Source of the DNA: Desulfovibrio sp.
GTDB lineage: Bacteria > Desulfobacterota > Desulfovibrionia > Desulfovibrionales > Desulfovibrionaceae
Assembly: GCA_031288535.1 (NCBI GenBank)
Contig: JAITRF010000060.1
Span: forward strand, 13,519-77,518
Direction of reading: 5' to 3'
Length of the DNA: 64,000 nucleotides
The notes beneath the pieces were generated by a model. That model made no database searches, was not told the origin of the DNA, and saw only the letters and a list, made by a program, of their open reading frames with translations. A program made the position numbers and the translations under genes. Shown here one piece after another: positions 6,144 to 22,628 of this stretch; the stretch's first letter is position 1, and the number at the start of each line of letters is the position of its first letter.

Positions 6144-6173
6144 GCACGGCAAAAACCGCGTTTTTTGCCGTGC
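6144..6173. terminator. 12-bp A/T-clamped hairpin between the convergent LysR and degP genes (possible bidirectional terminator)
   Basis: gcacggcaaaaa-ccgcg-(t)tttttgccgtgc is a perfect inverted repeat. Confidence 0.35.
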
Positions 6174-6215
6174 TTACGCCGCCTGCGGCGGCGATCCGGG
6201 CGGCAGGCCCGGCGA

Positions 6216-6311: not shown

Positions 6312-6384
6312 TCGGTTTATATATTTTCAATGTTAAACCACTCTGATACGCTATTCTGTATACATTTTCAGGTGTTACAGCGTA

Positions 6385-7815: not shown

Positions 7816-8093
7816 GATTGCCTCGTTGCTGAATGTTTTTATGGAAGATAAAGACTCTTTTGCGCTTGTAAAGGGAGTGGGGCAATAAGGGCGAAAATGT
7901 CTTCTGCCTTTATTGCCGCGGTATTTTTCCTTTGGTATAAGCGAAAGCCGCCGTGAACGCAAATTCGGCGCGCCGGGCATACCGCCCGGCGACCGGTATC
8001 CTGTTCAGTATGCTTTTTTAAGTGTTACAGCATACTGCTGTCATGATATTCTGCGAATGACGCGACACCTAGGCGGTTTGGGGGGGAGTCGAC

Positions 8094-8798
8094 ATGAGGG
8101 CGCTGCCCTTGCTTTCACTTGCCAAATCCACGCAGGCCCTGATTCGCGGGGAATTGCTGATTTTTCCCACCGAAACCGTATTCGGGCTTGGCTGTGACGC
8201 CATGAACGCCAAGGCTGTCGATGCTGTTTTCCGGATCAAGCGGCGTCCTTTGCATAAACCCCTGCCTCTTGTTGTTGGGTCACGAGCCTTGCTCGACGGC
8301 GCGATCCAGTCTCCGACGGAAACAGAGGCAAGGCTGATGGAACTTTTCTGGCCGGGTCCGCTTTCCATAGTCTGCCGCGCGCTGGATGAGCTTCCCTCCG
8401 CGCTGACCGCCGGAAGCGGCAGGGTGGCGGTGCGGGTTTCGCCTCATCCGGCCGTGCGTACGCTCTGCCGGGAAAGTGGCCTGGTTCTGGTCGCCACCAG
8501 CGCGAACATCAGCGAAAATCCCTCCGCGCGCCGTGTGGAAGAACTGGACGAGCGACTGGCCGAAGGAGTGGCGGGAGTTTTCTACCTGCCCCCTGACCCG
8601 GACGGCGGCAAATCTTCAACTCTTGTGGAAGTCGTCCGCGAGACGGAGAAGGCCGCTGGCGCAGGCGAGAGAGCGTCTTTTCCTGCCGATGCGGGGCCGG
8701 GACAAAATGTTCCCCGGGGCCGCCCGCTCTTGCGTATTTTGCGTTGGGGGGCGATTTCCGAAAAGAACTTGCTGGAGGCGGGACTTACTATAATTTAG
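8094..8798 (+). CDS. tsaC: L-threonylcarbamoyladenylate synthase (YrdC/TsaC/Sua5 family)
   Basis: LIFPTETVFGLGCDA, FRIKRRPLHKPLPLVV and ATSANISE are YrdC-domain motifs. Confidence 0.85.
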   Translation: MRALPLLSLAKSTQALIRGELLIFPTETVFGLGCDAMNAKAVDAVFRIKRRPLHKPLPLVVGSRALLDGAIQSPTETEARLMELFWPGPLSIVCRALDELPSALTAGSGRVAVRVSPHPAVRTLCRESGLVLVATSANISENPSARRVEELDERLAEGVAGVFYLPPDPDGGKSSTLVEVVRETEKAAGAGERASFPADAGPGQNVPRGRPLLRILRWGAISEKNLLEAGLTII

Positions 8799-8854
8799 GG
8801 TTGATACCTGATTGGTTATTTTTAAAGTAAAGGTTGAAGTACAGGATTGTGCGC

Positions 8855-9748
8855 ATGGAATTTCTTACCCTAATCATGACCGTACGCAACGGTATGCCAT
8901 ACCTTGAAGAGGCGGTGGATTCCATTTTTGCCCAGACTCTGCGCGAGTTTACCTTTTTGATTATAAACAACGCCTCTGAAGACGGCACGCGCGGTTTTCT
9001 CGAGCAGACTGCGGCCGGGGCGCACGGCAAAAGGCCTTTGCTGCGCGTTGAACATCTGCCGGTAAACGCCGGGCGCACCGGCGCTTTAAATCTGGCGCTC
9101 GGGCTTGTTGAGACGGAACTGACGGCGGTCATGGACGCCGATGACTTAAGCGCCCGGAATCGTTTGGAGCGCCAGGTGGAATTCTTGCGCCTCCACCCGG
9201 AGGTGGTGCTGCTCGGGTCGGACGTAGATTATATTGATGCGCAGAGGCGGGTTGTAGGAGAGGAGCGTTTCCCGACCGTTCATGAGGCGTTGCGGGATCA
9301 TCTGCCTTTGTACAACCCTTTCGCCCATTCCGCCTGCATGTACAGAACCGGCGCCGCACGCGCGGTCGGCGGCTACGATTCTTCTTTTGCCTATGCCCAG
9401 GATCTGGCCCTTTGGATAGCCATGCTACGCGATGGAGGCCGGGTTGCGAGCCTGAAGGAAAAGCTGGTCATGATCCGCAAGCACGGCGGACAGGCTACGC
9501 GAAACACCGGCATGGCCGGGGAGCGGGCCTTGGATAACCTCCGCCTCTCCGAAGCTATGCTGGGGTTGCCCGGTATTGGAAGAAGCGCCCGTCAGGCGGC
9601 CCTTCTGCGCCTTGCCTGCGCCCGCTACGGCACGGGCGAAAAAAAATCCGCCCTGAGCCAGATGCTGGCGACTGTCGCCGATGACCCCCTGCTTTTTTTC
9701 CTTAATCCCCTGCTTTGGCGCAGGCTGATTCGTTCCCTGCGCCGTTGA
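8855..9748 (+). CDS. Family 2 glycosyltransferase
   Basis: ORF 8834..9748 (TTG); the ATG at 8855 is more likely. LTLIMTVRNGMPYLEEAVDSIFAQT..FLIINNASEDGT and VMDADD are GT2 signatures. Confidence 0.8.
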   Translation: MEFLTLIMTVRNGMPYLEEAVDSIFAQTLREFTFLIINNASEDGTRGFLEQTAAGAHGKRPLLRVEHLPVNAGRTGALNLALGLVETELTAVMDADDLSARNRLERQVEFLRLHPEVVLLGSDVDYIDAQRRVVGEERFPTVHEALRDHLPLYNPFAHSACMYRTGAARAVGGYDSSFAYAQDLALWIAMLRDGGRVASLKEKLVMIRKHGGQATRNTGMAGERALDNLRLSEAMLGLPGIGRSARQAALLRLACARYGTGEKKSALSQMLATVADDPLLFFLNPLLWRRLIRSLRR

Positions 9749-9840
9749 TGCGGTTTTTATTCGGGGAAAGTATTTTCGGCAACGGGAATTCAACAGCCCG
9801 TTTGGCGGCAGTAGACGAGAGCGTGTCAACAGCAGGAAGA

Positions 9841-11112
9841 TCAGTCACGCAACATCTTCACAGCGCAGAACTTGCCGCACATGGCGCAGACTTCTTCCTC
9901 CCTGTGCGGTCTGCGGCGTTCCTCCAAGGTTTTGGGGTCCAGACAGGCCTGGCGCATGAGGTCCCAGTCAAGGGCAGAGCGGCCTGTGGCCATCACGGCT
10001 TCGCGTTTTAGCGCCTGCGGGCGTCCGAGGCTTACTTCGCCCACTTGGGCGGCCACACGGGAGGCCATAACCCCGGCCGCGACATCCGCCGCGTCAGGCA
10101 GGGTCAGGTGTTCGGCAGGTGTCAGGTAGCAGAGGAAATCCACGCCGGCGCGTACGCCCAAAGCGCCGCCGATGGCCCCGGCTATGTGGTCGTAGCCCGG
10201 CGCCACGTCTGTGGTCAGCGGCCCCAGCACGTAGAGAGGGGCGTTGTCGGTCAGTCTTTTGATGATTCTTATCTGGGCTTCCACATCGTTTAAGGGAACG
10301 TGGCCCGGCCCTTCAATCATGCATTGCGCGCCGCGCGCGTGGGCGTGGCGGGCCAGACGGCCAAGAGTGATGACTTCCTCAAACTGGGCTGCATCGCCCG
10401 CATCCGCTCCCGCGCCGGGGCGCAGGCCGTCGCCAAGGGAAAGGGTGACGTTGTGCCGCACCGCGATATCCACAAGCCGGTCAAAGTCCGTGAGCAACGG
10501 GTTTTCCCTGCCGTTTTTGAGCATCCAGCGGGCCAGAATTGAGCCCCCGCGCGACACGATGCCCATCGCCCGTTCGCCGGAAACAGCCCATTCCGCGCCG
10601 CGTCGGGTCAGGCCGCAGTGCAGGGTCATGAAATCCACCCCTTGGGCGGCCTGTTTTTCAACTTCCGCGAAAAGCTCTTCCGGATCGATGTCGCAGGGAT
10701 CGCGCTCCGCGTCCAGATAGGTCTGGGCCGTAGCGTATATCGGCACGGTGCCCAGAGGGCTCGGACACAGGTTCAGCATGCCGTCGCGGATGGCGTCCAA
10801 ATCTCCGGCGATAGACAGGTCCATGACCGTGTCCGCCCCGGCTTGCAGGGCAACGGAGAGTTTTTCCATTTCAGTTTGCGCACAGTTGAGCAGCGGCGAA
10901 GTGCCGATGTTGGCGTTGATTTTTACTCTGCTTGGGCTGCCGATCAGGACGGGTTTGAGATTTTTGTGCGCCGGGTTCCCGAGCAGGACCATGGTCCCGG
11001 CTTCTATTCCGGCGCGGATGGCTTCGGGCAACAGGTTCTCTTCGCTCGACAAGGCCGCGATCCCGCTCTCGAAGACTTTGGCCAAAGCGGAGTTTTTGAA
11101 AAAAACAGACAT
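9841..11112 (-). CDS. thiC: ThiC-family radical SAM enzyme (short form; phosphomethylpyrimidine synthase or a BzaF-like paralog)
   Basis: ORF 9841..11127. The start MSVFFKN at 11112 has GGAGGGGG upstream. ThiC-like core (INANIGTSP, DLSIAGD, GPGHVPL) and C-terminal CAMCGKFCAVK cluster motif. Confidence 0.8.
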   Translation of the reverse strand: MSVFFKNSALAKVFESGIAALSSEENLLPEAIRAGIEAGTMVLLGNPAHKNLKPVLIGSPSRVKINANIGTSPLLNCAQTEMEKLSVALQAGADTVMDLSIAGDLDAIRDGMLNLCPSPLGTVPIYATAQTYLDAERDPCDIDPEELFAEVEKQAAQGVDFMTLHCGLTRRGAEWAVSGERAMGIVSRGGSILARWMLKNGRENPLLTDFDRLVDIAVRHNVTLSLGDGLRPGAGADAGDAAQFEEVITLGRLARHAHARGAQCMIEGPGHVPLNDVEAQIRIIKRLTDNAPLYVLGPLTTDVAPGYDHIAGAIGGALGVRAGVDFLCYLTPAEHLTLPDAADVAAGVMASRVAAQVGEVSLGRPQALKREAVMATGRSALDWDLMRQACLDPKTLEERRRPHREEEVCAMCGKFCAVKMLRD

Positions 11113-11192
11113 AAACCCCCTCCACATAGATTTCCGGAGCGGCGGACGTCCGCTCCGGATGATGCCGCGGTTTTGGTCCGGTAAGGCCGGGA

Positions 11193-11762
11193 TCAGTTGA
11201 GCCAGAGAATATCCTCATGTTTGCGGGGTGGAACGGGCGGGGTCTGGTCCGGGTAGCCGACGGGCGTCAGGCCGACCAGGGCGTAGTTCCCGATGTCGAG
11301 CATTTTTTTAAATTCCGCTTCCTTGTTGAGGTAACCGGTCATCCAGCAGGTGGCAAGCCCGGCTTCGTAGGCGAGCAACAGGAAATTGTAGAACATGGCG
11401 GCGGCGGAATATAAATTTGCGACTTCCTCGCGTTTGTCTTCCATTTGCTGACCAAAGGCCGCCACGGCGGTGGAGGCGCCACCCAGATCCTTGAAATAGC
11501 CTTTGACGAAATTACGCATTTTTTCATTGAATTGCTGGGCCTTGAGAGCTTCGTCGATGGTTTCGGCAATTCCGGCCGAGAAATCAAGAAGTCTGCGCAG
11601 GGATGCGCCCTGAAAAACAACAAATTTCCACGGCTGGCGGTTCATGCCCGAAGGCGCCCATAGGGCCTGCTTCAGCAACGATTCCAGCAAAGCCCTGTCC
11701 ACCGCCTGCGGGGTGAATTTGCGTATGCTGCGCCTTTCCATGATGACTTTGCGAAGTTCCAT
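11193..11762 (-). CDS. Nitroreductase-family flavoprotein
   Basis: MERRSIRKFTPQAVDRALLESLLKQALWAPSGMNRQPWKFVVF is a canonical nitroreductase N-terminus. Confidence 0.8.
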   Translation of the reverse strand: MELRKVIMERRSIRKFTPQAVDRALLESLLKQALWAPSGMNRQPWKFVVFQGASLRRLLDFSAGIAETIDEALKAQQFNEKMRNFVKGYFKDLGGASTAVAAFGQQMEDKREEVANLYSAAAMFYNFLLLAYEAGLATCWMTGYLNKEAEFKKMLDIGNYALVGLTPVGYPDQTPPVPPRKHEDILWLN

Positions 11763-11837
11763 ACCTTACTCCTTGCCTGTAGACATTTCCGCATTCCATA
11801 AGCCACGGGAGAATAACGCCAAACCGATGCGGGCGCA

Positions 11838-11885
11838 AGCCGCCGCATTTCTATTTGTTGACAACAGCCGCCGCATTTCTATTTG
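11838..11885. repeat. Two perfect 20-bp direct repeats (agccgccgcatttctatttg) spaced 28 bp apart, flanking a TTGACA hexamer in a divergent promoter region
   Basis: Copies at 11838..11857 and 11866..11885 are identical. TTGACA lies at 11858..11863, followed after 16 nt by TATTTG. Confidence 0.9.
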
Positions 11886-12119
11886 CCGGCGAAAAGGCCG
11901 CAGGAAATTCCCGGAAGAAACAGCGGCGCCGGTCGCAAAATTCGCAGGCATAATGGACAGTCGATGCTGGGAAGAGTACATTTTAGCTCCGCATCCGGTG
12001 CCGGGGCGGAAAAGGGGGGATACCGAAATGCGGGGATTGAGGCGTACGACCACAAAACAGACCTGACCCGGCGTAATGCGCGTAGCGTTGCCGCGACGGG
12101 AGGTCAAGGGAGGAAGCCG

Positions 12120-12731
12120 ATGGCCGTCATCAGATATGTGAGACGGGAAGATGCCGCCGGCATTATTGATATCTACGCCCCTTATGTCCGGGATACGGCC
12201 GTCAGCTTCGAGGAAGAAATTCCTTCTCCGGATGAATACAGCCGGCGCATCGCCAAAATCGGCGCCGCTTATCCCTTTTTGGTCTGCGAAACCCGGGGAG
12301 GTATAGCCGCCTATGCCTATGCCTCGTCTTTCCGCGTCAGGGCCGCCTACCGCTTCAGCGTGGAGCTTTCGATCTACGTGGCATTGGCAAGGCAGGGCGC
12401 GGGCCTTGGTAAAATTCTTTACTCCTGTCTGCTGGATCTGTTGCGCAAGCAGGGTTTCTATACTGCTTTCGGGGTTATCACCCTGCCAAACCCGGCAAGC
12501 CTTGCCCTGCACGTGAGTTTGGGCTTCGTCGGTGCCGGCGTCTGGCGCAAAGCCGGGCACAAGCTGAACTCATGGCATGATCTGGCGCTTGTGCAAAAAG
12601 AACTCTTGAAGCCGGACGATCTGTCCTTTCCGGCCGAACCTTTGTCCGCCCATGAGGTCCGTTCCCGCTTCGGCGCGGATTTCTTTGCCCCTTATGCGGC
12701 CCGCCTTGATGAGATCCCGCCTTTGGAGTGA
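12120..12731 (+). CDS. GNAT N-acetyltransferase, phosphinothricin/methionine-sulfoximine acetyltransferase-like
   Basis: ORF 11883..12731. The start MAVIRYVRREDAAGIIDIY at 12120 has GGGAGGAAG upstream. The overall pattern (YAPYV..T.SFEE, VALARQGAGLGKILY) resembles the PAT/MddA family. Confidence 0.8.
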   Translation: MAVIRYVRREDAAGIIDIYAPYVRDTAVSFEEEIPSPDEYSRRIAKIGAAYPFLVCETRGGIAAYAYASSFRVRAAYRFSVELSIYVALARQGAGLGKILYSCLLDLLRKQGFYTAFGVITLPNPASLALHVSLGFVGAGVWRKAGHKLNSWHDLALVQKELLKPDDLSFPAEPLSAHEVRSRFGADFFAPYAARLDEIPPLE

Positions 12732-12798
12732 CGCGTTTTCCCATCCGTGTATCCCCGGTTGACATGGAGACCGTGGAACCACTCCGCAGGAAGAGTTC

Positions 12799-13086
12799 AT
12801 GTAGCCAAACTGGAATCCCTGGCACGGCTGCCGAAAATTCAGCCTCGGCTACCTGAACTGCTATGTCTGCCGCCTGGATGCAAAATTCGGGCGTGACCCT
12901 TCGATCTTTTCCCTGACCGACTCCTGCCTTTTGCCACTCGCCACGTACCGGGGCGGCAAAAACAAGGGCGAGTTCAGGTTGAAGCCTGATGGCAGCTATG
13001 TTTACACTTGTTTTTCCTCCGAATGTTCTCACGAAACTATCCTGCCTTGCAGAGCAGTCCAACTTTTCAAAGTTGAAATGCTATAA
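12799..13086 (+). pseudogene. N-terminal fragment of a phage Gp37/Gp68 (DUF5131)-like gene, with a stop at codon 2, truncated by a repeat copy
   Basis: My own translation: ATG TAG then PNWNPWHGCRKFSLGYLNCYVCRLDAKFGRDPS...SYVYTCFSSECSHE. This resembles the WNPW.GC.k.S.GC.nCYa N-terminus of DUF5131 proteins. The frame runs into hairpin 1 of the repeat and stops at TAA 13084. Confidence 0.45.
13045..13086 (-). repeat. Partial copy of the intergenic repeat (end of hairpin 2 + hairpin 1)
   Basis: ccttgcagagcagtccaacttttcaaagttgaaatgctataa matches the hairpin-1 end of copy 4846..4972. Confidence 0.8.
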
Positions 13087-13201
13087 AAATCGCTCGTTCC
13101 CAGAATATTGGGAACACATCTCCGCGCAAAGAGCCTTCATAGTCACTGCCCGAAATGGCGCCAAGGGTCATGGGGAATTACATTTTTTTGCCTAATTGGT
13201 A

Positions 13202-13218
13202 TTGAATTTTATTTTCAA
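13202..13218. promoter_or_regulatory. Candidate Fur-type operator upstream of the iron transporter
   Basis: TTGAATTTTATTTTCAA is an AT-rich imperfect palindrome 74 nt upstream of fbpA. It matches about 13/17 positions of the TGAAAAT-N-ATTTTCA type Fur box as I recall it for delta-proteobacteria. Confidence 0.3.
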
Positions 13219-13291
13219 ATAATTTAGTTTTTAATTTTCACACCCGGAGGACCTCCCGGGGATCAACCGTAACGCCTGAAGGAGATATCCC

Positions 13292-14320
13292 GTGACAAAA
13301 AAATTTTCTCTGCTGTTCTTTGCTTTCTTGTTTATTTTTGGCGTTGCCTCTGTCGCCTTGTCGGCGGAGCAGGTCGTGAACGTTTATTCGGCTCGGCATT
13401 ATGAATCTGATAAGGAACTGTATGCCCTTTTTCAGCAGCAGACTGGCATCGGAGTGAATGTTGTCAGCGCCAACGCGCCGGAACTTATTGAGCGGATTAA
13501 GCGGGAAAGTTCCGCCACAGAAGCGGATATTTTCATTACCGTTGATGGCGGCGTACTATATTCAGCCAAAGCCGCCGGCATTTTACAACCCGTCACTTCT
13601 CCGCTCGTGCTGAAAAATGTGCCTGCCTCCTTGCGTGACAAGGATAACGCCTGGGTTGGTCTGACCACCCGCGCCCGTGTCATTGTATACGCAAAAGACA
13701 GGGTGACGCCCAAAGAGCTTTCCACCTATGAGGATTTGGCGGATTCCAGATGGAAGGGCAGAGTTGTCGCCCGACCCTCCTCTTCTCTGTACGATCAATC
13801 ACTCTTGGCCTCACTCATCACTCTTGACGGCGAAGCAAAAGCCCTGGCCTGGGTCAAAGGCATTACGGCAAATTTCGCCAGACCTCCCAAAGGCAACGAT
13901 CGCGGCCAAGCCATGGATATCGCGGCCGGTATCGGCGATGTGGCGCTTATGAACACCTATTATATCGGGCAAATGCTCAATTCCAAAAACCCGGAGGAGG
14001 TCAAGGCAGCGCAGAATATCGGCATTTTCTTTCCCAATCAGCAAAGCACGGGCACCCATATCAATGTCAGCGGTATCGCCCTGACGAAGTATGCCAAACA
14101 CGTTGACAACGCCATTAAGCTCATTGAATTTCTTACTGACGTTCCGGCGCAGGAGCGGCTGTCGGCGGGCAATTACGAGTTTCCGGTAAATGTCGCGGCC
14201 CAAAAAAATCCGCTGCTTGCAAGTTGGGGCGCTTTCAAGCCGCAGAGCGTCGACTTTTCCGCCTTGGGCCTCAATAATGCCAGAGCGATTCAATTCTTTG
14301 CCGAAGGCGGATGGAAATAA
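13292..14320 (+). CDS. fbpA: Fe(3+) ABC transporter periplasmic substrate-binding protein
   Basis: GTG start after GAAGGAG. Signal peptide MTKKFSLLFFAFLFIFGVASVALSA. VNVYSARHYESDKELY..F..TGI.VN is typical of FbpA/AfuA-like binding proteins. Confidence 0.85.
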   Translation: MTKKFSLLFFAFLFIFGVASVALSAEQVVNVYSARHYESDKELYALFQQQTGIGVNVVSANAPELIERIKRESSATEADIFITVDGGVLYSAKAAGILQPVTSPLVLKNVPASLRDKDNAWVGLTTRARVIVYAKDRVTPKELSTYEDLADSRWKGRVVARPSSSLYDQSLLASLITLDGEAKALAWVKGITANFARPPKGNDRGQAMDIAAGIGDVALMNTYYIGQMLNSKNPEEVKAAQNIGIFFPNQQSTGTHINVSGIALTKYAKHVDNAIKLIEFLTDVPAQERLSAGNYEFPVNVAAQKNPLLASWGAFKPQSVDFSALGLNNARAIQFFAEGGWK

Positions 14321-16068
14321 ACTCCGGCCCCTTATCCTCCCGGCCTGTTCCTGCCGCAAAGCGCCCCGGCTTTTTTCAAGGATCGGCACATGCCGCGTGC
14401 CGGAGCCTCGTGGGTCGCTTTGCGGCAAGATTGCTGCCTTGCCGTCTTTTATGGAACGGTTGGCAAACCATACGCGCATTTTCTTTTTTGTGTGTGCTCT
14501 TGCCTTTTCTGTCCCTCGCCGGAGGTATATTTTCTCCCTCCGGCGAATACTGGGGCTATGTGCGCGACCATCTGCTGCGGGACTATTTTGCGGAAACGAT
14601 TCTTCTGGCTGCGAGCACCGGAATATCTACGTTTTGTCTCGGCGTGGCTCTGGCCTGGGTGATGAGCTTGTATGATTTTCGGGGCAGGAAATTTTTTGAA
14701 GTGTTTCTTCTGCTTCCCTTGGCCATTCCTCCGTATATTGCCGCCTATGCTTATGAAGGACTGTTGGGATACACCGGGATGGTCCAGAGTTTTTTCCGCA
14801 ATGCCTTTGATCTTCAGCTTGGCAGCCTCACCATGAATATTCCGGCGCAAGCGTGGGCCATCTGGATTTTCACCGTGACGCTTTTTCCCTATGTGTATCT
14901 TTTGACACGGGCGATGCTGAGAAAGCAGAGCGCGGCGCTCTTTGAAAACGCGCTGCTCCTCGGCGGCGGGCGCATACGCATGTTTCTGCGGGTTGGTCTG
15001 CCGCTGTTATGGCCTGCGGCGGCTGCGGGAGCCATCCTGGTTTGTCTTGAGGTACTGAACGACTTTGGCGTTTCCAGCTACTATGGCTTGAACACGTTTA
15101 CCACAGCCATATTTGCCGCATGGTTCGGCATGGGTGATGTGGATACGGCCGTTAAGCTGGCGCTTCTTTTACTCGCTTTGGTTTTTTTTGTCCTTCTTGC
15201 CAGGAAGGCAGTGCATAATGCCCGCCGCTATCAAATTGTCTCCAGCAGAGAAAATCCGATAGTCCTCCGCCGGGCCAGGGGGATGCCTCAAGCCGGAATC
15301 GTATTGTTATGCGCTTTTGCTTGTCTGGCCGGTTTCGCCGCTCCGCTGTTGCAGATGCTGTACTGGCTGCGTTTAAGCTGGGACGGGGCATTCACCGCTG
15401 AGCTTGGCCGCGCTCTGGTGTATACGTTAAGCGTTTCTGCGGCGGCCACCTTGGCTGTAATGATCGCGGCAACAGGCACGGTGAACGCGGGGAGACTGTT
15501 TTCCGGAAAATTTTCCGTTTTGCTCTCGCAAGGGGCCACTCTTGGGTACGCCATACCATCAGCTGTGTTGGCCATCGGGATAATCAGCTTTTTCATTGAA
15601 GCGGATGCTGTCCTGTCCGTGTTTTTCCCTCTTTTACCCGTTAAATTTTTCAGCATGGGCGGTATAATGCTGATTTTCGCTTACTGCATCCGCTTTTTCA
15701 CTGTCGGATACCAGATGGTGGAAGCCGGATTTGCCAAGATCGGCGTAATATATACGGAGGTTTCGCGCACCTTGGGTCGAAGCGTAACCGGCACATTTTT
15801 TCTGGTCGATCTGCCCATGATTCGCCATGCCCTGATAAGCGGATCGGCACTTGTTTTTATAGATATTTTGAAGGAATTGCCTCTGAGCCTGCTGTTGCGT
15901 CCGTTTAATACGGAAACTCTTGGCACCACTGTATACAATTTTGCCAAAAATGAAGTCCTGGAAGAAACTGCTCTTCCGTCTTTGTGCATCATTTTGTCTG
16001 GAACAGCTTTTATATTGCTGATGCAGTCCTGGGAAAGAAAGAAGGCCGGTCATGTTTCTGGAAATTGA
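14311..16068 (+). CDS. fbpB: Fe(3+) ABC transporter permease (fused two-domain FbpB type)
   Basis: A 585-aa polytopic membrane ORF with two permease repeats. The start is uncertain: ATG 14311 overlaps fbpA, and an in-frame GTG at 14410 preceded by GGAG is an alternative. Confidence 0.8.
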   Translation: MEINSGPLSSRPVPAAKRPGFFQGSAHAACRSLVGRFAARLLPCRLLWNGWQTIRAFSFLCVLLPFLSLAGGIFSPSGEYWGYVRDHLLRDYFAETILLAASTGISTFCLGVALAWVMSLYDFRGRKFFEVFLLLPLAIPPYIAAYAYEGLLGYTGMVQSFFRNAFDLQLGSLTMNIPAQAWAIWIFTVTLFPYVYLLTRAMLRKQSAALFENALLLGGGRIRMFLRVGLPLLWPAAAAGAILVCLEVLNDFGVSSYYGLNTFTTAIFAAWFGMGDVDTAVKLALLLLALVFFVLLARKAVHNARRYQIVSSRENPIVLRRARGMPQAGIVLLCAFACLAGFAAPLLQMLYWLRLSWDGAFTAELGRALVYTLSVSAAATLAVMIAATGTVNAGRLFSGKFSVLLSQGATLGYAIPSAVLAIGIISFFIEADAVLSVFFPLLPVKFFSMGGIMLIFAYCIRFFTVGYQMVEAGFAKIGVIYTEVSRTLGRSVTGTFFLVDLPMIRHALISGSALVFIDILKELPLSLLLRPFNTETLGTTVYNFAKNEVLEETALPSLCIILSGTAFILLMQSWERKKAGHVSGN

Positions 16069-16696
16069 CACTGTATTTTTCGCCTATCCAGGCAAGGCCA
16101 GTCCCTGGATACTCGCCGGATACAGCTTTGGAATGGAAGCCGGAGAACGTGTGGGCATCGCCGGGCCGAGTGGGCAGGGCAAAAGCACTTTGCTACGGCT
16201 CATCGCCGGATTGGAACACCCTCAGAGGGGCAATATAGTCATAGATGGTCGCACAGTGGCCGCTCAAAACATACACATCAACCCGGAAGAGCGGCAGGTG
16301 GGCATGGTCTTTCAGGATTACGGCCTGTTCCCACATATGACTGTAGCGCAGAATATCGCCTATGGTCTGTATCGTCTCAAACGCGACGCGCGGCGGCAAC
16401 GAGTGGAGGTTATGCTGGAACTCACCCGAATGCAGGAATTGGCCTGCCGTTATCCTTATGAAATAAGCGGCGGGCAACAGCAACGGGTCGCCATTGCCCG
16501 CGCATTAGCGCCCAACCCGAAGTTACTTTTGCTTGATGAACCTCTGAGCAATCTTGACGCCGGGTTGAAGAAGGAAATACGCGCGGAAATGCGAGAACTC
16601 ATGGATCACACCCATTCCACATGCCTGTTTGTTTCCCATGACCTGGAGGATTTGCGGGCTGTCTGCGGGCGTATTGAAATTATCGGTTCGCCATAA
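16052..16696 (+). CDS. fbpC: ABC transporter ATP-binding protein (short FbpC-like, no C-terminal regulatory domain)
   Basis: Walker A GPSGQGKST, signature ISGGQQQRVAIARAL, Walker B LLLLDEP. Confidence 0.85.
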   Translation: MFLEIDTVFFAYPGKASPWILAGYSFGMEAGERVGIAGPSGQGKSTLLRLIAGLEHPQRGNIVIDGRTVAAQNIHINPEERQVGMVFQDYGLFPHMTVAQNIAYGLYRLKRDARRQRVEVMLELTRMQELACRYPYEISGGQQQRVAIARALAPNPKLLLLDEPLSNLDAGLKKEIRAEMRELMDHTHSTCLFVSHDLEDLRAVCGRIEIIGSP

Positions 16697-16775
16697 GCAA
16701 TGAAAGCCCTCTGGCTGATCTGGCTTCGTACTTTGTTTGTCGCTTGTGGCGGTAGTGTCCAGCGCTTTTCTTATG

Positions 16776-16958
16776 TAGTCCCTTTGCGGCATCATCCATA
16801 GTTGCAATGAGATCTCAGGATTTGTCCGGCGCCCATTCATGGGGCGAACCGTCCTGATGAAGCGTCATGCCCGGCAGAAGTCCTCGCGTTCGCTTGCGGC
16901 GATGCTGTTCCAGCTTCAGTGCCTTTTTGTACGACACCGGCCGCCTGAAGCGTATTTT
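16776..16958 (-). pseudogene. Remnant of an ISNCY/rve-type transposase gene with an in-frame stop
   Basis: My own translation: ..YKKALKLEQHRRKRTRGLLPGMTLHQDGSPHEWAPDKS*DLIATMDDAAKGL. This matches the ..FGELVQ.DGS.HDWFE......L...DDAT.. region of ISNCY-type integrase-core transposases as I recall them. Only about 60 codons are recognisable. Confidence 0.5.
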
Positions 16959-17107
16959 TCACCCGTGTGCAGCTGTGCGTGCATCTTGGCACAGGGAAAT
17001 ACCCCGTAAAATATGCCGGATACATGGATTGCATTCGATTCGGAAACTCAAAAAAATCCCTTGACTTGCGGGGCGTGTCTATACATGGATTGTGGGGCGC
17101 GGTTTCC

Positions 17108-17136
17108 TTGACCGAAAACAAGGCCGCCGCTATACT
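17108..17136 (+). promoter_or_regulatory. Sigma-70-type promoter candidate for the atpZ-I-B-E operon
   Basis: TTGACC-N17-TATACT, 55 nt upstream of the atpZ start. Confidence 0.45.
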
Positions 17137-17190
17137 CCGGACACTTGGGAGGCACAAGCGTTTTAGAGGCGACGGGAGAAAAAACGCGGC

Positions 17191-17466
17191 ATGGGATTGG
17201 CGAAATTTTTCAACATTACCGACAGGAATTATCTGGACAACCTGTCTTTGGCCGGCACAATAGGGCTGCATATGGTCAGTTCGGTCGCCGTGGGCGTTGC
17301 CTTGGGCTACGGACTTGACTTCTGGCTTGAGACTTATCCTTGGTGTTCGGGGATATTTATGCTGATCGGCATTGCGGCCGGCTTCAAAAACGTGTATGTC
17401 GACGCAAAAAAACTGGCCGCGCGCCAGGAACAGGAAAACAAAGGGAAAGGCGACGCGCAAGAATGA
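17191..17466 (+). CDS. AtpZ/AtpI-family small membrane protein of the F0F1 operon
   Basis: 91 aa with two TM helices. It is the first gene of the F0 cluster, and its stop forms an ATGA overlap with the next gene. Confidence 0.65.
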   Translation: MGLAKFFNITDRNYLDNLSLAGTIGLHMVSSVAVGVALGYGLDFWLETYPWCSGIFMLIGIAAGFKNVYVDAKKLAARQEQENKGKGDAQE

Positions 17467-17909
17467 TCTCATTTTCCCCGGCCGCCTGGCATAGGGCGCT
17501 TGAACGGCATCTGGAAAGCGCAGGTTTTTCCCTGCGAGCCGTGCGGCACGTACTGTGCACGCAGCTTATTTTTTCCGCGGTTGCCCTGCTGGCGGGAGCG
17601 GCAGCAAGTGTGTTCAGCCTTGCTCCCATAGCCTTCGGAGCGGGTTCCGCGCTCTCCACCTTCAGCCTCTGGCATGTGGCCAGATTCGGGGAAAGGTGCG
17701 TGAACATGCGTTTTTCCGCAGGCTTGGGAATGGGTTTATTTTTCGGGTTTTTTCTTCGCCTTTTGCTTATCGGGGCGGTTCTTGTCCTTCTGCTGGGGCT
17801 GCTCAAACTGCCCGCGCTGCCGATACTGGCGGGCCTGACTTCTACGGTCGCCGGCATAGCGGTCTGGGGAGCGACGAGGCTGTTCGGGAAAACAACGACA
17901 GAGGAATAA
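17463..17909 (+). CDS. atpI: ATP synthase protein I (AtpI)-like membrane protein
   Basis: ORF 17340..17909; ATG at 17463 (MISFSPAAW..). Hydrophobic, about 148 aa, immediately upstream of atpB. Confidence 0.65.
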   Translation: MISFSPAAWHRALERHLESAGFSLRAVRHVLCTQLIFSAVALLAGAAASVFSLAPIAFGAGSALSTFSLWHVARFGERCVNMRFSAGLGMGLFFGFFLRLLLIGAVLVLLLGLLKLPALPILAGLTSTVAGIAVWGATRLFGKTTTEE

Positions 17910-17912
17910 ATC

Positions 17913-18578
17913 ATGGAACATCCGGTGACTTTGGCCACCCTGCTTGACATTCCAGAGGCCTATCATCATGTTTTCTACACTTGGTGCGCGATGGCCGCGC
18001 TTTTCGTCGCCAGCCTCGTATTGCGGCGCAGGATGCAACTTGTGCCGGAAGGCCTGCAGAACTTCGTGGAAATCGTCATCGGCGGTCTGGAAGATTTTAC
18101 GGTAGCCACAATAGGCGAAAAGGGAAGAAAAATTTTCCCTTTGCTCTGCGGCATCTTTATCTTCATCCTGGTCCAGAATCTGTTGGGGCTGCTGCCTTTC
18201 TTCGATGCGCCCACAGCCAACATAAACACTAACGCAGCCATGGCGCTGTTCGTGTTCATCTATTACAACTATGTCGGCCTGCGCTCGTGGGGGCCGCGCT
18301 ATATCAAGCATTTCACGGGTCCCATGCCGATGCTCGTCCCGCTTATGTTGCCTATTGAGCTGGTAAGCCATTGCGCGCGGCCTCTTTCCTTGACCCTGCG
18401 TCTGTTCGGCAATATCCGGGGGGAGGAAATCGTGCTGCTGCTTTTCTTCAGCATGGCCCCGGTGTGGTCCACACTGCCCTCCTATTTTCTTTTCCTTCTT
18501 GCCAAGTGCTTGCAAGCCTTTATTTTTTACATGCTGACGATGATCTATCTGCAAGGGGCTTTGGAGCACGCTCATTGA
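17913..18578 (+). CDS. atpB: F0F1 ATP synthase subunit a
   Basis: Contains the conserved [15 protein letters not shown] motif (essential Arg). Confidence 0.9.
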
Positions 18579-18748
18579 AGCATTTTTACTTTGCAAACGC
18601 ACCCACGGCGGGGTGCAGGCCACGCTGGCGCAATTCACGTACGCCGTCAAGCGCCGTGGCGGCAAAGCCAATCTCCCTAAGGCGCCCAGAACGTTTAGTC
18701 GATCGCGGGAACGGTCATCAGGCCACAACATATAATAAGGAGCCTTAC

Positions 18749-19105
18749 ATGCGTAAACCAGTGATTATTATTTCGGGTTTCATCGCCCTGCTCGCGACGG
18801 CCGGTCTGGCCTGCGCCGCCGAGGCGGCCGAGGCGGCCGCCCGTTACATGTCCGACGATGCCATCGGTCTCAGTTACATTGCTGCGGCAATCGGCATGAG
18901 CATCGCCGCCGCCGGGTGCGGCATAGGCCAAGGCCTTGGTCTCAAGGCGGCCTGCGAAGGCACTGCCCGCAATCCCGAGGCCGGCGGAAAGCTCATGGTC
19001 ACCTTAATCCTGGGTCTGGCCTTTATAGAATCCCTGGCCATCTACGCCCTGGTCGTCAACATGATTCTGCTTTTCGTCAATCCTCTGGCAAAGCCTATCC
19101 TGTAA
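18749..19105 (+). CDS. atpE: F0F1 ATP synthase subunit c with an N-terminal hydrophobic extension
   Basis: ATG 18749 after [35 protein letters not shown] is the c-subunit hairpin, preceded by about 35 extra residues ([30 protein letters not shown]). Confidence 0.9.
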
Positions 19106-19145
19106 TTCCGGTGCAAACCGAAATAGCGTCCTGCAATTTTGATTT

Positions 19146-19183
19146 GGCGGCTGGGGTAAAACTGTGGTTTTGCCTCAGCCGCC
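19146..19183 (+). terminator. 17-bp stem hairpin downstream of atpE (no U-tract)
   Basis: ggcggctggggtaaaac-tgt-ggttttgcctcagccgcc, with G-U pairs allowed. Confidence 0.4.
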
Positions 19184-19338
19184 TCACATCACTCGCGTTG
19201 GATAAAAACTGAAGCTGTCATCCATAATAAATTTAGTGGGCGAAACAACCGGATGCGGCAGAACTTTATTCCCAAGCGTAAACTGTTTTAGTGGCCTTCA
19301 AGGCGGCGTTATGTCATTTTCGTTTAAAATCGCGTAGG

Positions 19339-19983
19339 TCAACAGTCAGGGAAATCCTCGCCAGGCGGCAGACGCTCCCAAATAATCCTGCCCCGGCTTT
19401 TTTTGAACTTGCGCAGCAGCACATACACCGCTCCCGCCCCGCCGTCTTTGGCCTGGGCCGTGCAAAAAGCCAGCACGACGCGCTTGAACGGCACGCGGCA
19501 CAGCCATTGCCGAAGCATGGGACGCAATACGCCCAGGCCTTCCGGAGAATTTCTGCCTCGGCCGGTGATTACCGTCACACAACGTTGGTTTTTCACATAA
19601 GCCTGTCTGATGAAACGGAGCAGTGCATCGTAAGCCTGCCTCGCGTTCATGCCGTGCAGGTCGATATGCCCTTCCTGGCTGTAAGTGCCCGCGCGCAGGC
19701 GGCTGAGTATGCAGGGGTCCAGATCTAGTACCGAGCCTTCAAAATATTCACCGCTGTGCAAAAAGGCGAATTTGGCGTTGTCCTCCAACAGTTCGTACGG
19801 GCTTTTTTCCGGAATGGGCCGTGGCGCACGAGGCAAAGGCAAAGAAGGAGGGGTGACGCTCCGGCCTTTGCCGCCTACGGGCTTCACGTCTTTGGTCGCG
19901 TCCGCGAAAAGGTTTTTATCTTCCGGCGTCAGCATGTTTATCCGCAACCGCGATGCTTGGCGTATTTCAGAGCGGAGCGACAT
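19339..19983 (-). CDS. Smr-domain protein (MutS2 C-terminal-like endonuclease domain)
   Basis: IDLHGMNARQAYDALLRFIRQA...VTVITGRGRNS is an Smr domain signature. Confidence 0.8.
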   Translation of the reverse strand: MSLRSEIRQASRLRINMLTPEDKNLFADATKDVKPVGGKGRSVTPPSLPLPRAPRPIPEKSPYELLEDNAKFAFLHSGEYFEGSVLDLDPCILSRLRAGTYSQEGHIDLHGMNARQAYDALLRFIRQAYVKNQRCVTVITGRGRNSPEGLGVLRPMLRQWLCRVPFKRVVLAFCTAQAKDGGAGAVYVLLRKFKKSRGRIIWERLPPGEDFPDC

Positions 19984-19984
19984 T

Positions 19985-20094
19985 GAGAATGTTCATCCGC
20001 TCTGCACGGATTTACCTGCAAATCCTTGTCGCAAGATTGCCGCAAGCGGGCTTTGCCCGCCATTAAGCGGCAACATCAAGCGCAAAATGGTTTA
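19985..20094 (+). repeat. Near-complete, diverged copy of the intergenic repeat, filling the whole hypB-smr spacer
   Basis: ..ccgctctgcacggatttacctgcaaatccttgtcgcaagattgccgcaagcgggctttgcccgccattaagcggcaacatcaagcgcaaaatggttta. The final TTA is the complement of the hypB TAA stop. Confidence 0.85.
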
Positions 20095-20754
20095 CGACCC
20101 GGCAAGTTTGGCCTGTCGTGCCTTGCGCAGGTAGGCGTACCAGGCGTCCAGTCCATCGCCGCTACGGCATGACAGGGGCAGCACGTTCAAGTCCCCGTTC
20201 AGTTTCCTGGCGAACCGCTCCGCCCGCTCAAGGCTGAAATCCACATAGGGCAAAAGATCGATCTTGTTCAAAACCAGCACAGCGGCAAGATGGAAGAGCA
20301 GGGGGTATTTTTCCGGCTTGTCGTCACCCTCCGTGACGCTTAAAACAGCCGCGATCCCGTCCTGACCGCAGTCAAACTCCACCGGGCAAACCAGGTTGCC
20401 GATATTCTCAATAAACAGGATATCCAGACCCTCAAGAGGAAATTCTTCTATGGCCCTGCGTACCATCAACGCGTCGAGATGGCAGCCTCCGCCTGTGTTG
20501 ATCTGAAAGACCCTGGCGCCGACGGCGGCGATGCGGCGGGCGTCGTTGTCGGTCTGCAAGTCGCCCTCGATCACCCCCATGGAGAATTCTTCGCGCAAAT
20601 CCATGAGCGTGCGTTCCAAAAGCGCCGTCTTTCCCGCTCCCGGCGAGCCGATCAGATTGAGCACCAACAGAGAGCGTGCGGCAAAGGAGCTTCTCAGCTC
20701 CTTCGCAATTTTATCGTTGAACTCCAAAATATTATGTCCAAGCGTCTCGTCCAT
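20092..20754 (-). CDS. hypB: Hydrogenase nickel-incorporation GTPase HypB
   Basis: ORF 20092..20802; likely start MDETLGHN at 20754. GSPGAGKT P-loop and ENIGNLVCPVEFD motif. Confidence 0.9.
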   Translation of the reverse strand: MDETLGHNILEFNDKIAKELRSSFAARSLLVLNLIGSPGAGKTALLERTLMDLREEFSMGVIEGDLQTDNDARRIAAVGARVFQINTGGGCHLDALMVRRAIEEFPLEGLDILFIENIGNLVCPVEFDCGQDGIAAVLSVTEGDDKPEKYPLLFHLAAVLVLNKIDLLPYVDFSLERAERFARKLNGDLNVLPLSCRSGDGLDAWYAYLRKARQAKLAGS

Positions 20755-20776
20755 GCCCGCCTCCAGGCAAACGGCC

Positions 20777-21136
20777 TCAATCCGCCGCCAACATATAATC
20801 AATGCATAATTCCCGGCCCGCCAGCACCTTGTGTCCTATTTCCTCTCCGCACTTCGGGCAGGGAGAAATCAGCGCCGCCGGAAAACCGTGCGCCGTAAAT
20901 TCTGCGCCGCATCCGCCGCAGGCTAGGCGCAGAGGCTCTTCGACCAGTTCCAGGCGTGTAGCGGCGAATTCCGTATCGGCCGCCATGAGCGTGAAAGCCG
21001 TTTCCAAGGCCTCGGGCGATGCATTGCTCAGAGCTCCGCAACGCAAGCGCACCAGGGAAAGTCCCTTGAGGCCGCGTTGTGCCGTTTCCGCGCGCAGCAA
21101 CTCCAGAAGGGAGAGGATCAGGGAAGCTTCATGCAT
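20777..21136 (-). CDS. hypA: Hydrogenase maturation nickel metallochaperone HypA
   Basis: MHEASL N-terminus (Ni site) and CGGCG..CPKCG zinc motif. Confidence 0.9.
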   Translation of the reverse strand: MHEASLILSLLELLRAETAQRGLKGLSLVRLRCGALSNASPEALETAFTLMAADTEFAATRLELVEEPLRLACGGCGAEFTAHGFPAALISPCPKCGEEIGHKVLAGRELCIDYMLAAD

Positions 21137-21377
21137 CGCTTTCAGGATATGCCAAAAGCGACCTTATGCCAAGAAGCGCGCTTGTGGGTTTTCCGGCAGG
21201 CTCAATTCGTCAGGCAGGGGAAGCTCCGGGTTCTGAAGGTATAAATTCAATGCGCAATCTGGAGTGGGTCGCTTCCGCCGCTTTTTTGAGAGTGGATACG
21301 GATGGAGTATATGTGGAAGATTCCAGTTGGGTGGTAGCTGATTGCGTAGTACTCAATTTTTCAACCAGTTCCTCAAG

Positions 21378-21498
21378 TAGTTCAACTTCGAAAAGTTGTC
21401 CTGCTCTGCAAGGATTTGCTTGCAAATCCTTGCCGCGAAATGCTTGTAGGCGGGCTTGCCCGCCGTCAAGCAAGCATTTCAAGCGTAAAATGCTCTAG
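21378..21498 (+). repeat. Full copy of the tri-palindromic intergenic repeat
   Basis: tagttcaacttcgaaaagttgtcctgctc / tgcaaggatttgcttgcaaatccttgc / cgcgaaatgcttgtaggcgggcttgcccgccgtcaagcaagcatttc / aagcgtaaaatgctctag. Confidence 0.95.
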
Positions 21499-21998
21499 AT
21501 ATTTTCTAGACCCTGTGAGCGCTTGCTTTGATTCTTCATTCGATCGCCCTGATTGTGGTGGCCGGAGATATAGACAAAAATATTGATTGCGTATATAAAA
21601 CACCCTAAAGGCAAGGTGGGAGTTTCCGCGCCTGGCAAGCAGCCGGGCCGGAAGCCGTTTCATAAATCGATTTTGTGAGGCTTCCGCTGTCCCCAGGCGG
21701 AGTAACCGCCATAACCAAGCCGAAAACCGCGCTTTTCGGCTAATGTTCTTCTCATAATCGACCGTCAGGTTAATAATGAGATATCATGCAGCCGTGTGGA
21801 CGCCTCGGGCGTAACCTCCGGGGCAGCCGGACGGCGGAGGGCGTCCCCTGTCACCGTAGACCCGGGAGTGCGCCTGTTTTTGCAAACCCGCAGGGTTTGT
21901 CGCCGGTCCGGGGGGAGGCAAACGCCCCCGCCTTTGTTCGCAAGTGTAAGAAACAATGCGCCTTCAAACTCCGAAACGTTACCAAGCGGGGTGAATGC

Positions 21999-22628
21999 AT
22001 GGAAACAGTATTATTGAACGGCCGGGACGACGCTTTTATCCGGGCCGTGGAGGAGAGCAGCGGCCAGGTGGTTGCCCGATGTTACCAGTGCGGCAATTGT
22101 ACCGCCGGTTGTCCGATGTCTTTTGCTTACGACTATTCCGTAAGTCAGGTCATGCGGCTGATTCAGGCCGGGCAAAAGGACGCGGTGCTTTCTTCCAAAG
22201 CCGTGTGGCTGTGCGCGGCCTGCAACACATGCAGCCAGAGATGTCCCAACGAGATCAATGTTGCCGGGGTGATGGACGCATGCAGGCAGATGGCCCGGCG
22301 GGAGAAAAAATTCGCGGTTCGCGCCATGCGCGCGTTTGTCGACGCCTTTCTGGATTCCGTCAAATTTAACGGGCGCTCCCATGAAGTCGGCATAATGGCC
22401 CTGTATATGCTTTATACTGGCCGGGTGTGGACGGATGTGGAGCTCGCCCCGAAGGTTCTGCCCAAAGGAAAGATGCCCCTGTTGCCGCATCGCATCAAGG
22501 GCCGCTCCGAAGTCGCGGCGATTATCGATCGCTATAAACAGGGACTTTCCGACCCGGAACGGGTCAGGGCGCGTCTTGCAAAAGACGCAGGGGCAGAAAG
22601 CGGTAAAGGAAAGGAGGCAGTTTCATGA
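21999..22628 (+). CDS. hdrC: Heterodisulfide reductase subunit C (HdrC-like, two 4Fe-4S motifs)
   Basis: ORF 21786..22628; start METVLLNG at 21999. CYQCGNCTAGCP and CAACNTCSQRCP motifs. Confidence 0.85.
   Translation: METVLLNGRDDAFIRAVEESSGQVVARCYQCGNCTAGCPMSFAYDYSVSQVMRLIQAGQKDAVLSSKAVWLCAACNTCSQRCPNEINVAGVMDACRQMARREKKFAVRAMRAFVDAFLDSVKFNGRSHEVGIMALYMLYTGRVWTDVELAPKVLPKGKMPLLPHRIKGRSEVAAIIDRYKQGLSDPERVRARLAKDAGAESGKGKEAVS

Follow-up and report, generated by a model that had tools for sequence, protein, structure and literature searches.

A three-hairpin repeat family of gut Desulfovibrio, probably a TA-duplicating miniature inverted-repeat transposable element

Background

[quoted passage not shown] For one of the described families, the Correia or NEMIS elements of Neisseria, no cognate insertion sequence (IS) was reported in a 2008 review (PMC2229807). 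Another, RUP of Streptococcus pneumoniae, is a MITE of ~107 bp that inserts at TA, is often found in or next to IS elements, and has been proposed to be mobilized in trans by an IS630-family transposase, that of IS630-Spn1 (PMC2229807). REPs are single palindromes of 20-40 nt without TIR or TSD, which occur in alternating orientation and are tied to a RAYT gene (PMC2817692). We describe here a repeat of about 125 bp, built of three hairpins, that is scattered over a 64-kb stretch of DNA ('the window') from a metagenome-assembled genome (MAG) of Desulfovibrio sp. and over metagenome and genome loci fetched for comparison, which bear names in the style L001-L128.

The repeat had been noticed in a reading of the window made from its sequence alone, which left open whether it was a MITE or a composite REP/BIME-like element. 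We conclude that the three-hairpin repeat is a previously uncatalogued MITE family, and that it is carried by Desulfovibrio of the gut and by a small number of other gut bacteria. A small TA-targeting selfish element is of a well-known kind; what is unusual is the presence of three conserved hairpins and of Correia-like ends.

Results

Anatomy of the element and its copies in the window

The element measures about 121 bp plus a duplicated TA. Its layout is TA / GAGCAGTTCAAC-loop-GTTGAnCTGCTC (hairpin 1) / GCAAGGATTTGC-NN-GCAAATCCTTGC (hairpin 2) / a two-tier GC-rich hairpin 3 / CAAGCGTAAAATGCTC / TA. The window contains six full-length copies of ~125 bp and about six truncated or decayed ones, for a chance expectation near 0. 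The four copies originally named as full are confirmed: they align over ~125 nt with a mean column identity of 79%, and an nhmmer profile built from them matched them with E-values of 1e-39 to 1e-43. This profile also matched two diverged full-length copies (19978-20091, forward strand, and 6216-6343, reverse strand) and three partial ones (13045-13082, reverse, 59587-59630 and 53848-53916, both forward). A covariance model, R1, built from 60 family members, recovered these six full copies with scores of 86-138 bits (108-138 bits for the four named at the outset), together with weaker matches at 53847-53936 (E = 7e-4), 52080-52160 (E = 1.6e-3), 12958-13085 (E = 0.02), 59488-59630 (E = 0.5) and 45973-46083 (E = 0.8). 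Hairpin 2, when searched with up to three mismatches, had six matches in the window compared to 0.00 expected, and the 18-nt tail had seven compared to 0.05 expected. Profile, covariance model and both counts therefore bear out the idea of a dense repeat, the copies and remnants numbering about a dozen over the 64 kb. Among the copies that had been called partial, those at 13045-13085, 53847-53936, 59587-59630 and 52080-52108 hold up; two others (6217-6345 and 19968-20094) are in fact full-length but diverged, and the one at 46066-46083 is marginal. The copies and remnants are listed below with their strand and, where recorded, their setting.

4846-4971 (-), full copy, the best fit to the family model (137.5 bits), with a TIR of 25 nt that is 72% complementary; between the divergent genes for Fe-ADH (3562-4665, -) and a LysR regulator (5049-6104, +)
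6217-6345 (-), diverged full-length copy (86.4 bits) with a perfect hairpin 2; the sequences of hairpins 1 and 3 differ yet pair; between the convergent genes for LysR (+) and DegP/HtrA (6385-7980, -)
13045-13085 (-), truncated copy made of TA, head and hairpin 1, ending 6 nt into hairpin 2 (TATAGCATTTCAACTTTGAAAAGTTGGACTGCTCTGCAAGG); E = 3e-8
19273-19290 (+), weak tail-like remnant, CAAGCGTAAACTGTTTTA, 15/18 positions; nhmmer E = 4
19968-20094 (+), diverged full-length copy (105.3 bits), filling the smr-hypB spacer
21373-21497 (+), full copy from which the work started (123.9 bits); left TA degenerate (TC), right TA at 21496-21497; hairpin 1 at 21376-21405, hairpin 2 at 21408-21433, hairpin 3 at 21437-21480 (outer arms 21437-21446/21471-21480, inner GC stem 21449-21464), tail and right TIR at 21480-21495; between the divergent hypA (20777-21136, -) and a gene for an Fe-S protein (21786-22628, +), as assigned by Pfam
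46066-46083 (+), decayed tail remnant, marginal when taken alone, CAAGCCCAAAATGCTATA, 15/18 positions; covariance model E = 0.8
52080-52108 (+), short module of the hairpin-1 type that begins TAGAGC, TAGAGCAATTTCACTTTGAAATTGCTCTG; covariance model E = 1.6e-3 for 52080-52160; it resembles a short-hairpin subfamily of the metagenome loci
52227-52348 (+), full copy (108.5 bits), whose hairpin 3 is a perfect 19-bp stem; between the convergent lpxL (+) and a purQ-like gene (52707-53567, -)
53847-53936 (+), diverged relative (covariance model E = 7e-4) in which hairpin 1 is kept (TGGAGCGGTTTAAC…AAACCGCTC) and different hairpins come after it; between the divergent purQ-like and pyrG genes
59587-59630 (+), 3' remnant with the 3' half of hairpin 3 and a perfect tail (18/18); nhmmer E = 1.4e-5
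62753-62878 (+), full copy (110.6 bits); between rpoN (61163-62587, -) and a RumA-like methyltransferase gene

Ends, inverted repeat and target

Ends and target were analyzed on an alignment of 76 non-redundant copies with their flanks. Conservation stops exactly at T-A on both sides. Beyond it, only a bias remains: position -1 is C or T in 79% of copies and position +1 is G or A in 74%, which corresponds to a YTAR target preference. The outer ends had been read as 'CTAG…CTAG', and the outer C and G turn out not to belong to the element. The inverted repeat suspected at the ends is present, but it is imperfect and ~21 nt long (GAGCAGTTCAAC…/…AAAATGCTC) rather than 8 nt. Over 22 nt, end-to-end pairing is 70% complementary, compared to 24-47% in slid controls, and the TIRs covary between subfamilies (TAGAGC…GCTCTA in one, TATAGC…GCTATA in another). 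Unit positions 3 and -3 behave as inverted, not direct, repeats, which rules out a target duplication of 3 or 4 bp.

Some loci carry longer or related units. An insertion of ~20 nt (…GTCGCGGACACAGGCCCTGTGC…) in the apical loop of hairpin 3 brings the element to ~147 nt in copies of L041, L053, L061, L123 and L038. An extra unit of ~70 nt, with its own TATAGC…-type end, is joined at the tail to members of the TATAGC subfamily through a shared TA, forming a composite of ~195 nt. In L044, an MCP gene and an OMP gene are enclosed by two such composites, which form a 185-nt inverted repeat. The extra unit is found at the following places.

L044:1538-1611 and 5537-5609
L028:2365-2433
L035:5005-5073
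L058:2073-2141

In L015 (41% G+C), a mosaic of other small TATAGT-ended repeats occupies 81-262, 1794-1955 and 2074-2212. It includes a 74-nt unit in three copies and a perfect 30-nt palindrome, TATAGTAGTTTAACT-NN-AGTTAAACTACTATA, which looks like two MITE ends placed back to back.

Distribution of the family

A metagenome collection was scanned with the hairpin-2 pattern, and at least 120 stretches matched, each a locus carrying the element. This excludes that the window holds the only copies, as a local duplication artefact would. A profile search of 127 fetched loci plus the window (~760 kb of loci) then yielded the set of copies used here, at least 86 full-length, of which at least 76 are non-redundant. 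Most of the metagenome matches listed come from a handful of JGI samples. Two of them, however, are contigs labelled human-gut metagenome, with a G+C content of 61-62%, which carry a full copy (L111:2285-2410) and a partial one (L068:305-384); the family thus extends beyond the samples from which most loci come. Many matches lie at contig ends, which agrees with a repeat that breaks assemblies.

Among 185,579 species-representative genomes, the hairpin-1 pattern was found in only three places, two contigs of the 'Deltaproteobacteria' MAG Gx481_bin32 and one contig of a Holophagales MAG. The latter contig is authentic, as the named relatives of its transketolase all belong to Holophagaceae or Acidobacteria. 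The copy it carries (L004:2359-2480) agrees with the others in its three hairpins, their spacing and the tail, and its stems are made of other sequences. The family thus spans at least two phyla, Desulfobacterota and Acidobacteriota. The element was absent from collections of plasmids, phages and viral contigs. Low-GC loci were considered as a sign of other host taxa; this was rejected, and L069 carries accessory-type genes, so that its G+C content is uninformative on the host.

An Rfam search had been suggested. With Rfam 15, no match was obtained in the window at gathering thresholds, and the element alone, under permissive settings, gave chance-level matches only (E of at least 1.5). A full-text literature search on MITEs or repeats of Desulfovibrio returned nothing relevant, and Desulfovibrio is unmentioned in the main text of the reviews consulted and of a survey of 183,232 genomes.

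Evidence for mobility

Fifty-nine pairs of copies were at least 96% identical, and about 53 of these pairs had unrelated flanks on both sides; for copies 96-100% alike, flank identity was at the random level (0.1-0.4). Subfamilies are largely sample-specific, which indicates recent bursts in those hosts. In the window, the copies are only 63-87% alike and some are truncated. This points to an old activity in this genome, and the window copies are probably no longer moving.

Filled and empty sites were also compared. L005 is a syntenic contig from the closest relative (84% RpoN identity), the next relatives of the window RpoN, among them Desulfovibrio sp. OttesenSCG isolates, being at most 84% identical. 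It has no copy in 13 kb, including three orthologous spacers that are occupied in the window by 53847-53936, 59587-59630 and 62753-62878. These spacers are too diverged to define the insertion junctions of the window copies. Elsewhere, L028 is filled where L058 is empty. The copy at L084:5831-5956 splits a 36-nt palindromic repeat with eight intact copies elsewhere, and only the removal of the element and one TA restores the 17+2+17 arrangement. In L011, tandem copies share one TA, and copies were also found nested in, or adjoining, other repeats. The single-TA reconstruction was the best in three comparisons of three, namely those in L084, in L028 with L058, and in L011 (107 compared to 86 and 90; 82 compared to 68 and 64; 40 compared to 34 and no hit). 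Duplication of a single TA at the target is thus well supported as the best-fitting reading, although not proven base for base.

The smr-hypB spacer had been described as consisting entirely of the element, and the copy at 19968-20094 does fill it. A relative with ~70% nucleotide identity, L120, likewise carries a copy where hypB stops; its orientation is that of the window copy, and its subfamily is a different one. A ~93% identical copy of that subfamily lies in L054, which is not syntenic, so the insertion in L120 may have struck this stop-codon TA independently. The site is ambiguous, as common descent and repeated targeting of one TA both fit.

Two side observations were made on these loci. 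The 36-nt perfect palindrome (ATACCAAGTTGCGTTCA-NN-TGAACGCAACTTGGTAT) is a separate repeat family, seen in contigs of metagenome Ga0268262, and it often adjoins GGCGGCGGGAACCG. Upstream of rpoN, a block of ~60 nt (GCGAAAACATTATATTTGACAAATAAGGCAC..AGCTTGCATAAAAA) is near-identical between the window (62588-62650) and L005 (4120-4182), while the remaining spacer is not; this block is probably the rpoN promoter or leader. The copies of the 36-nt palindrome are as follows.

L084:3113-3148
L118:462-497 and 4488-4523
L109:6769-6804
L066:1623-1658
L044:2090-2125
L035:4605-4640 and 7262-7297

Three hairpins kept by compensatory changes

Folded as single-stranded DNA, one copy reached -33.9 kcal/mol (z = -7.5). 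In 60 copies, the three hairpins, which comprise four helices and 41 pairs, were paired at 92.4%, compared to 32-43% in slid controls. Changes on both sides of a pair were found in 27 of the 41 pairs, and none of 500 shuffles reached the observed values. The copies entering this statistic are related to each other, and hairpin 2 had served as the pattern for the scan. No such selection bears on hairpins 1 and 3, whose 23 pairs all vary. Wobble pairs showed no clear strand preference (66 G·T compared to 44 A·C). The order of the three hairpins, their spacing and the length of the unit (~122-127 nt) are the same across subfamilies and in the Holophagales copy, and the unpaired linkers and the tail are conserved too. 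We conclude that the three hairpins are kept by compensatory changes, even in the copy from Holophagales (Acidobacteriota).

Search for a transposase

No transposase matching the element had been seen in the window, and this stands. A tblastn search with the IS630-family protein of L015 detected nothing there, its only matches being in L084 and in a fragment in L066. Pfam scans of 30 open reading frames (ORFs) of the window gave housekeeping families or no match, and no transposase, Y1 transposase or RAYT gene.

IS630-family genes do occur in the loci that carry copies. The one at L015:579-1629 (DDE_3, E = 3e-28; HTH_32/33) is bounded by a 37-nt TIR and TA, and adjoins a copy that is interrupted at TA by this element. 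L084:250-1135 is a degraded relative, and in L066 another copy probably sits inside a fragment of an IS630-like gene. In its own right, L015:562-1663 is a compact IS of ~1.1 kb, placed at the 5' end of the MITE copy, with a TIR that is 81% complementary, TA on both sides, and two overlapping ORFs (a frameshift or a pseudogene).

Two kinds of candidate for an autonomous parent were discarded. Where head-like and tail-like ends lay 0.6-3.5 kb apart, they belonged to pairs formed by separate MITEs or by other small repeats. The 3.7-kb segment between the inverted copies of L044 holds the MCP and OMP genes and no transposase; an IS1-like fragment merely adjoins it.

Relation to genes and stop codons

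The genes beside the window copies are ordinary chromosomal ones according to Pfam: Fe-ADH, LysR, DegP, smr, hypB, hypA, lpxL, purQ-like, pyrG, PTS-IIA, rapZ, rpoN and the RumA-like methyltransferase. Several spacers of the window consist almost only of the element. The context of the copies was established with a simple codon-based gene caller, which reproduces the Pfam-checked genes of the window.

Between genes in tandem, 28 copies (16 sense, 12 antisense)
Between divergent genes, 11 copies
Between convergent genes, 7 copies
At a contig edge, 20 copies
In an overlap of more than 30 nt with a called gene, 10 copies

The census of orientation relative to flanking genes, which had been called for, thus reveals no bias in co-directional pairs. 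Neither promoter nor terminator consensus was found inside the five copies or partial copies lying within window positions 4000-22000.

The terminal TA and the first G of the element often form the stop codon of the neighboring gene. Such is the case for five genes of the window.

20092-20094, stop of hypB (-): the terminal TTA of the 19968-20094 copy gives a TAA stop
46079-46081, stop of a radical-SAM gene (46079-47209, -): the CTA of the 46066-46083 remnant
52080-52082, stop of lpxL (51150-52082, +): the first TAG of the 52080-52108 module
59628-59630, stop of rapZ (-): the terminal CTA of the 59587-59630 remnant gives a TAG stop
62876-62878, stop of the RumA-like methyltransferase gene: the terminal CTA of the 62753-62878 copy gives a TAG stop

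In the larger set of 76 copies, a stop codon was shared at about 15 of the 54 gene 3' ends that face a copy, 11 times with the tail end and 4 times with the head end. A stop codon used as target can be rebuilt as TAG because YTAR contains TAA and TAG, and because both ends of the element start with G. With an in-frame TAG rebuilt, insertions into stop codons would be harmless and would accumulate at gene ends.

Two further features of the window were noted. An exact 20-nt direct repeat (AGCCGCCGCATTTCTATTTG) is present at 11838-11857 and 11866-11885, with starts 28 nt apart, just upstream of a GNAT acetyltransferase gene. A 683-aa ORF without Pfam match (2395-4446, +) runs antisense to two well-supported genes, for a DegT-type aminotransferase (2311-3546) and Fe-ADH (3562-4665), and is almost certainly spurious.

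Discussion

A mobile element and its possible mechanism

The MITE reading is supported by covarying TIRs, TA duplication, dispersed near-identical copies, presence or absence in relatives, nesting, and the lack of orientation bias. We consider it probable that the element is a TA-duplicating MITE. A DDE transposase, encoded elsewhere and acting in trans, would bind both ends of the element, excise it and paste it into a TA, preferentially in a YTAR context, thereby duplicating the TA. The type of enzyme is suggested by TA duplication combined with inverted-repeat ends, which point to a DDE transposase. Enzymes of the IS630/Tc1-mariner group duplicate TA strictly; those of the IS427 group of the IS5 family duplicate 2-4 bp at YTAR and act on ends beginning Ga/g. 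IS630/Tc1-mariner would be the most likely type, and the same DNA does contain TA-duplicating transposases of the IS630 family; the IS427 group may also be envisaged. We hold the assignment of the partner to the IS630 family with less confidence than the TA-duplicating MITE itself.

Several observations do not sit easily with this scheme. The two IS630-like elements end in TA/TCGCTTTCTATTG… and not in TA/GAGCAGTTCAAC…; their ends, TA/TCG(C/T)…CTATTG… in the two IS copies compared (L015 and L084), are unlike those of the MITE, and a matching relative may exist elsewhere. A transposase with matching ends was not found in the window or in the ~760 kb of loci, and when all the ORFs in the loci were clustered, none of the clusters was a multi-copy transposase. 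No junction between filled and empty sites is base-perfect, a few bases of the nearby flanks being different. The conservation of hairpin 2 is partly inflated by its use as the metagenome search pattern. Finally, a classical cut-and-paste MITE requires only its ends, and end-only cut-and-paste does not explain three internal hairpins held by compensation across subfamilies and two phyla. The hairpins would presumably be needed for propagation or for a low cost to the host, rather than for a host function.

Other explanations for the hairpins

It could be argued that the element did spread by mobility, but that its copies now persist chiefly because they serve the host as structured RNA or DNA modules, such as 3'-end stabilizers, RNase III/E processing sites or insulators. 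Such roles have been reported for Correia, ERIC and REP, and RNase-mediated effects of MITE hairpins are documented in other families (PMC2229807, PMC10969869). The strong compensation in all three hairpins, with its double changes and high pairing, would be expected of such modules. So would the spacers made almost only of the element, the five genes that end in it, and the smr-hypB copy, whose position and orientation recur in L120, although the subfamily of the L120 copy has its non-syntenic member in L054 and this copy may be an independent hit. Against this, nothing resembles the behavior of an RNA gene: the copies are not biased in orientation relative to transcription, those examined contain neither a promoter nor a terminator consensus, and Rfam has no match. 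Moreover, G·U and A·C pairs show no clear strand asymmetry, the closest syntenic relative lacks the element at three spacers, and the window copies are decaying into truncated forms and remnants. We regard upkeep by the host as unlikely. The compensatory pattern might also arise without any function for element or host, as a by-product of template switching in quasi-palindromes during replication, one arm being corrected against the other. The paired regions are indeed all local near-perfect palindromes with loops of 2-4 nt, the substrate of such correction, and the absence of a clear strand preference among wobble pairs would agree with it. Arm-to-arm correction alone, however, would not preserve the order, spacing and length of the hairpins across samples and in the Holophagales copy, whose stems are different, nor are the unpaired linkers and tail, also conserved, accounted for. 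This origin of the pattern therefore appears very unlikely.

The REP/BIME possibility raised by the sequence-only reading belongs to a third type of explanation, in which a hairpin-ended single-stranded DNA element is moved by a Y1 HUH transposase, either as an IS200/IS605-type element or as a REP/BIME-like array moved by RAYT. Sub-terminal hairpins kept by compensation at both ends, and the existence of solo hairpin-1 units (13045-13085 and 52080-52108), would suit such an element. IS200/IS605-type elements have neither terminal inverted repeats nor target duplication, and their insertion site lies 3' of one particular tetra- or pentanucleotide. The window element has covarying inverted repeats as ends, symmetric flanks (Y-TA-R) and a duplicated TA, and on these grounds we rejected an IS200/IS605-type palindrome-associated element. 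The three hairpins are mutually different and in a fixed order, not one REP in alternating orientations, and no Y1 transposase or RAYT gene was present among the window ORFs scanned. The composite REP/BIME-like reading does not survive for a fixed, TIR-bounded unit with a TSD, and movement by a Y1 enzyme seems to us most improbable. An integron attC site, brought to mind by the RYYYAAC/GTTRRRY look of hairpin 1, was dropped as these motifs are not kept in other subfamilies.

Significance

The family matters for annotation: in 64 kb of an uncultured gut Desulfovibrio, about a dozen copies take up many spacers wholly or for the most part and supply the stop codons of five genes, and they break metagenome assemblies. 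A family model would improve the annotation and binning of Desulfovibrionaceae from termite, cockroach and human guts. The element is also an example of how a TA-targeting element can be near-harmless in a G+C-rich genome: its YTAR targets coincide with TAA and TAG stops, and its terminal G rebuilds TAG. Two points go beyond the routine, namely the three internal hairpins compensated across phyla, which cut-and-paste does not require, and the statistically supported resemblance of the ends to Correia.

Comparison with known systems

By its size, non-coding nature, dispersal, TIR, TSD, and filled and empty sites, the element of the window corresponds to a generic bacterial MITE. With RUP it shares TA insertion and an association with the IS630 family, the L015 copy being interrupted by such an element and the L066 copy probably lying inside a fragment of one. 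The TIRs of RUP, however, match a known IS, whereas no matching IS was found for the window element, which has no sequence similarity to RUP. ERIC/IRU elements are likewise ~127 bp long and intergenic, with terminal TA and stable stem-loops (PMC2229807); they differ in being one long imperfect palindrome with a 7-bp TIR, and in sequence and host range. REP, BIME and REPIN-RAYT systems are also abundant intergenic palindromes that can cluster and fill whole spacers, but the window element is a fixed order of three different hairpins inside TIR and TA bounds, with no RAYT gene seen.

The likeness to Correia/NEMIS goes further. These elements are small (105-155 bp), non-coding, mostly intergenic and present in many copies, and are flanked by TA, with TA duplication and a TIR of ~24-26 bp (PMC2229807). 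Their TIR, TATAGTGGATTAAATTTAAATCAGGACA (PMC5039591), matches the head of the L115 copy, TAGAGTAGATTAACTTTGAAAAAGTACA, at 16 of 20 and at 21 of 28 positions. None of 2000 composition-preserving shuffles reached 16 of 20, this best head variant being that of one subfamily. For the window's own copies, the match counted by eye is 9 of 14, and the tail end is less similar. The interiors are unrelated: on 40 kb of N. gonorrhoeae DNA, model R1 gave the Correia copy at L128:20001-20106 an E-value of 8.7, its best match having an E-value of 0.19. Homology over the whole element was rejected since the family model misses the gonococcal Correia copy. The likeness is a resemblance of ends only, and not membership. 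The Correia RNA forms one long TIR-TIR stem, in contrast to the three local hairpins of the window element. Another contrast is that no sigma-70-like promoter was found in the window copies scanned (4000-22000). No IHF site was evident by eye in the window element, no scan for IHF having been run. As an aside, the source of the Correia elements compared, L128 (NZ_CP119140.1), and NZ_CP119142.1 are 2.17-Mb Neisseria gonorrhoeae chromosomes filed as 'plasmids' in the plasmid collection.

A bolder proposal, which we hold to be rather unlikely, is that the family might belong to a 'Correia-type' superfamily as its first branch outside Neisseria, sharing TA/TAG(T/C)(G/A)GATTAA(A/C)TTT(A/G)AA ends and present in gut bacteria of at least two phyla. 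Its three hairpins would then be required for propagation, through structure-dependent recognition or processing of DNA, or through an RNA borne by the element. If such is the case, hunting for a co-occurring gene could reveal the class of transposase that moves Correia elements.

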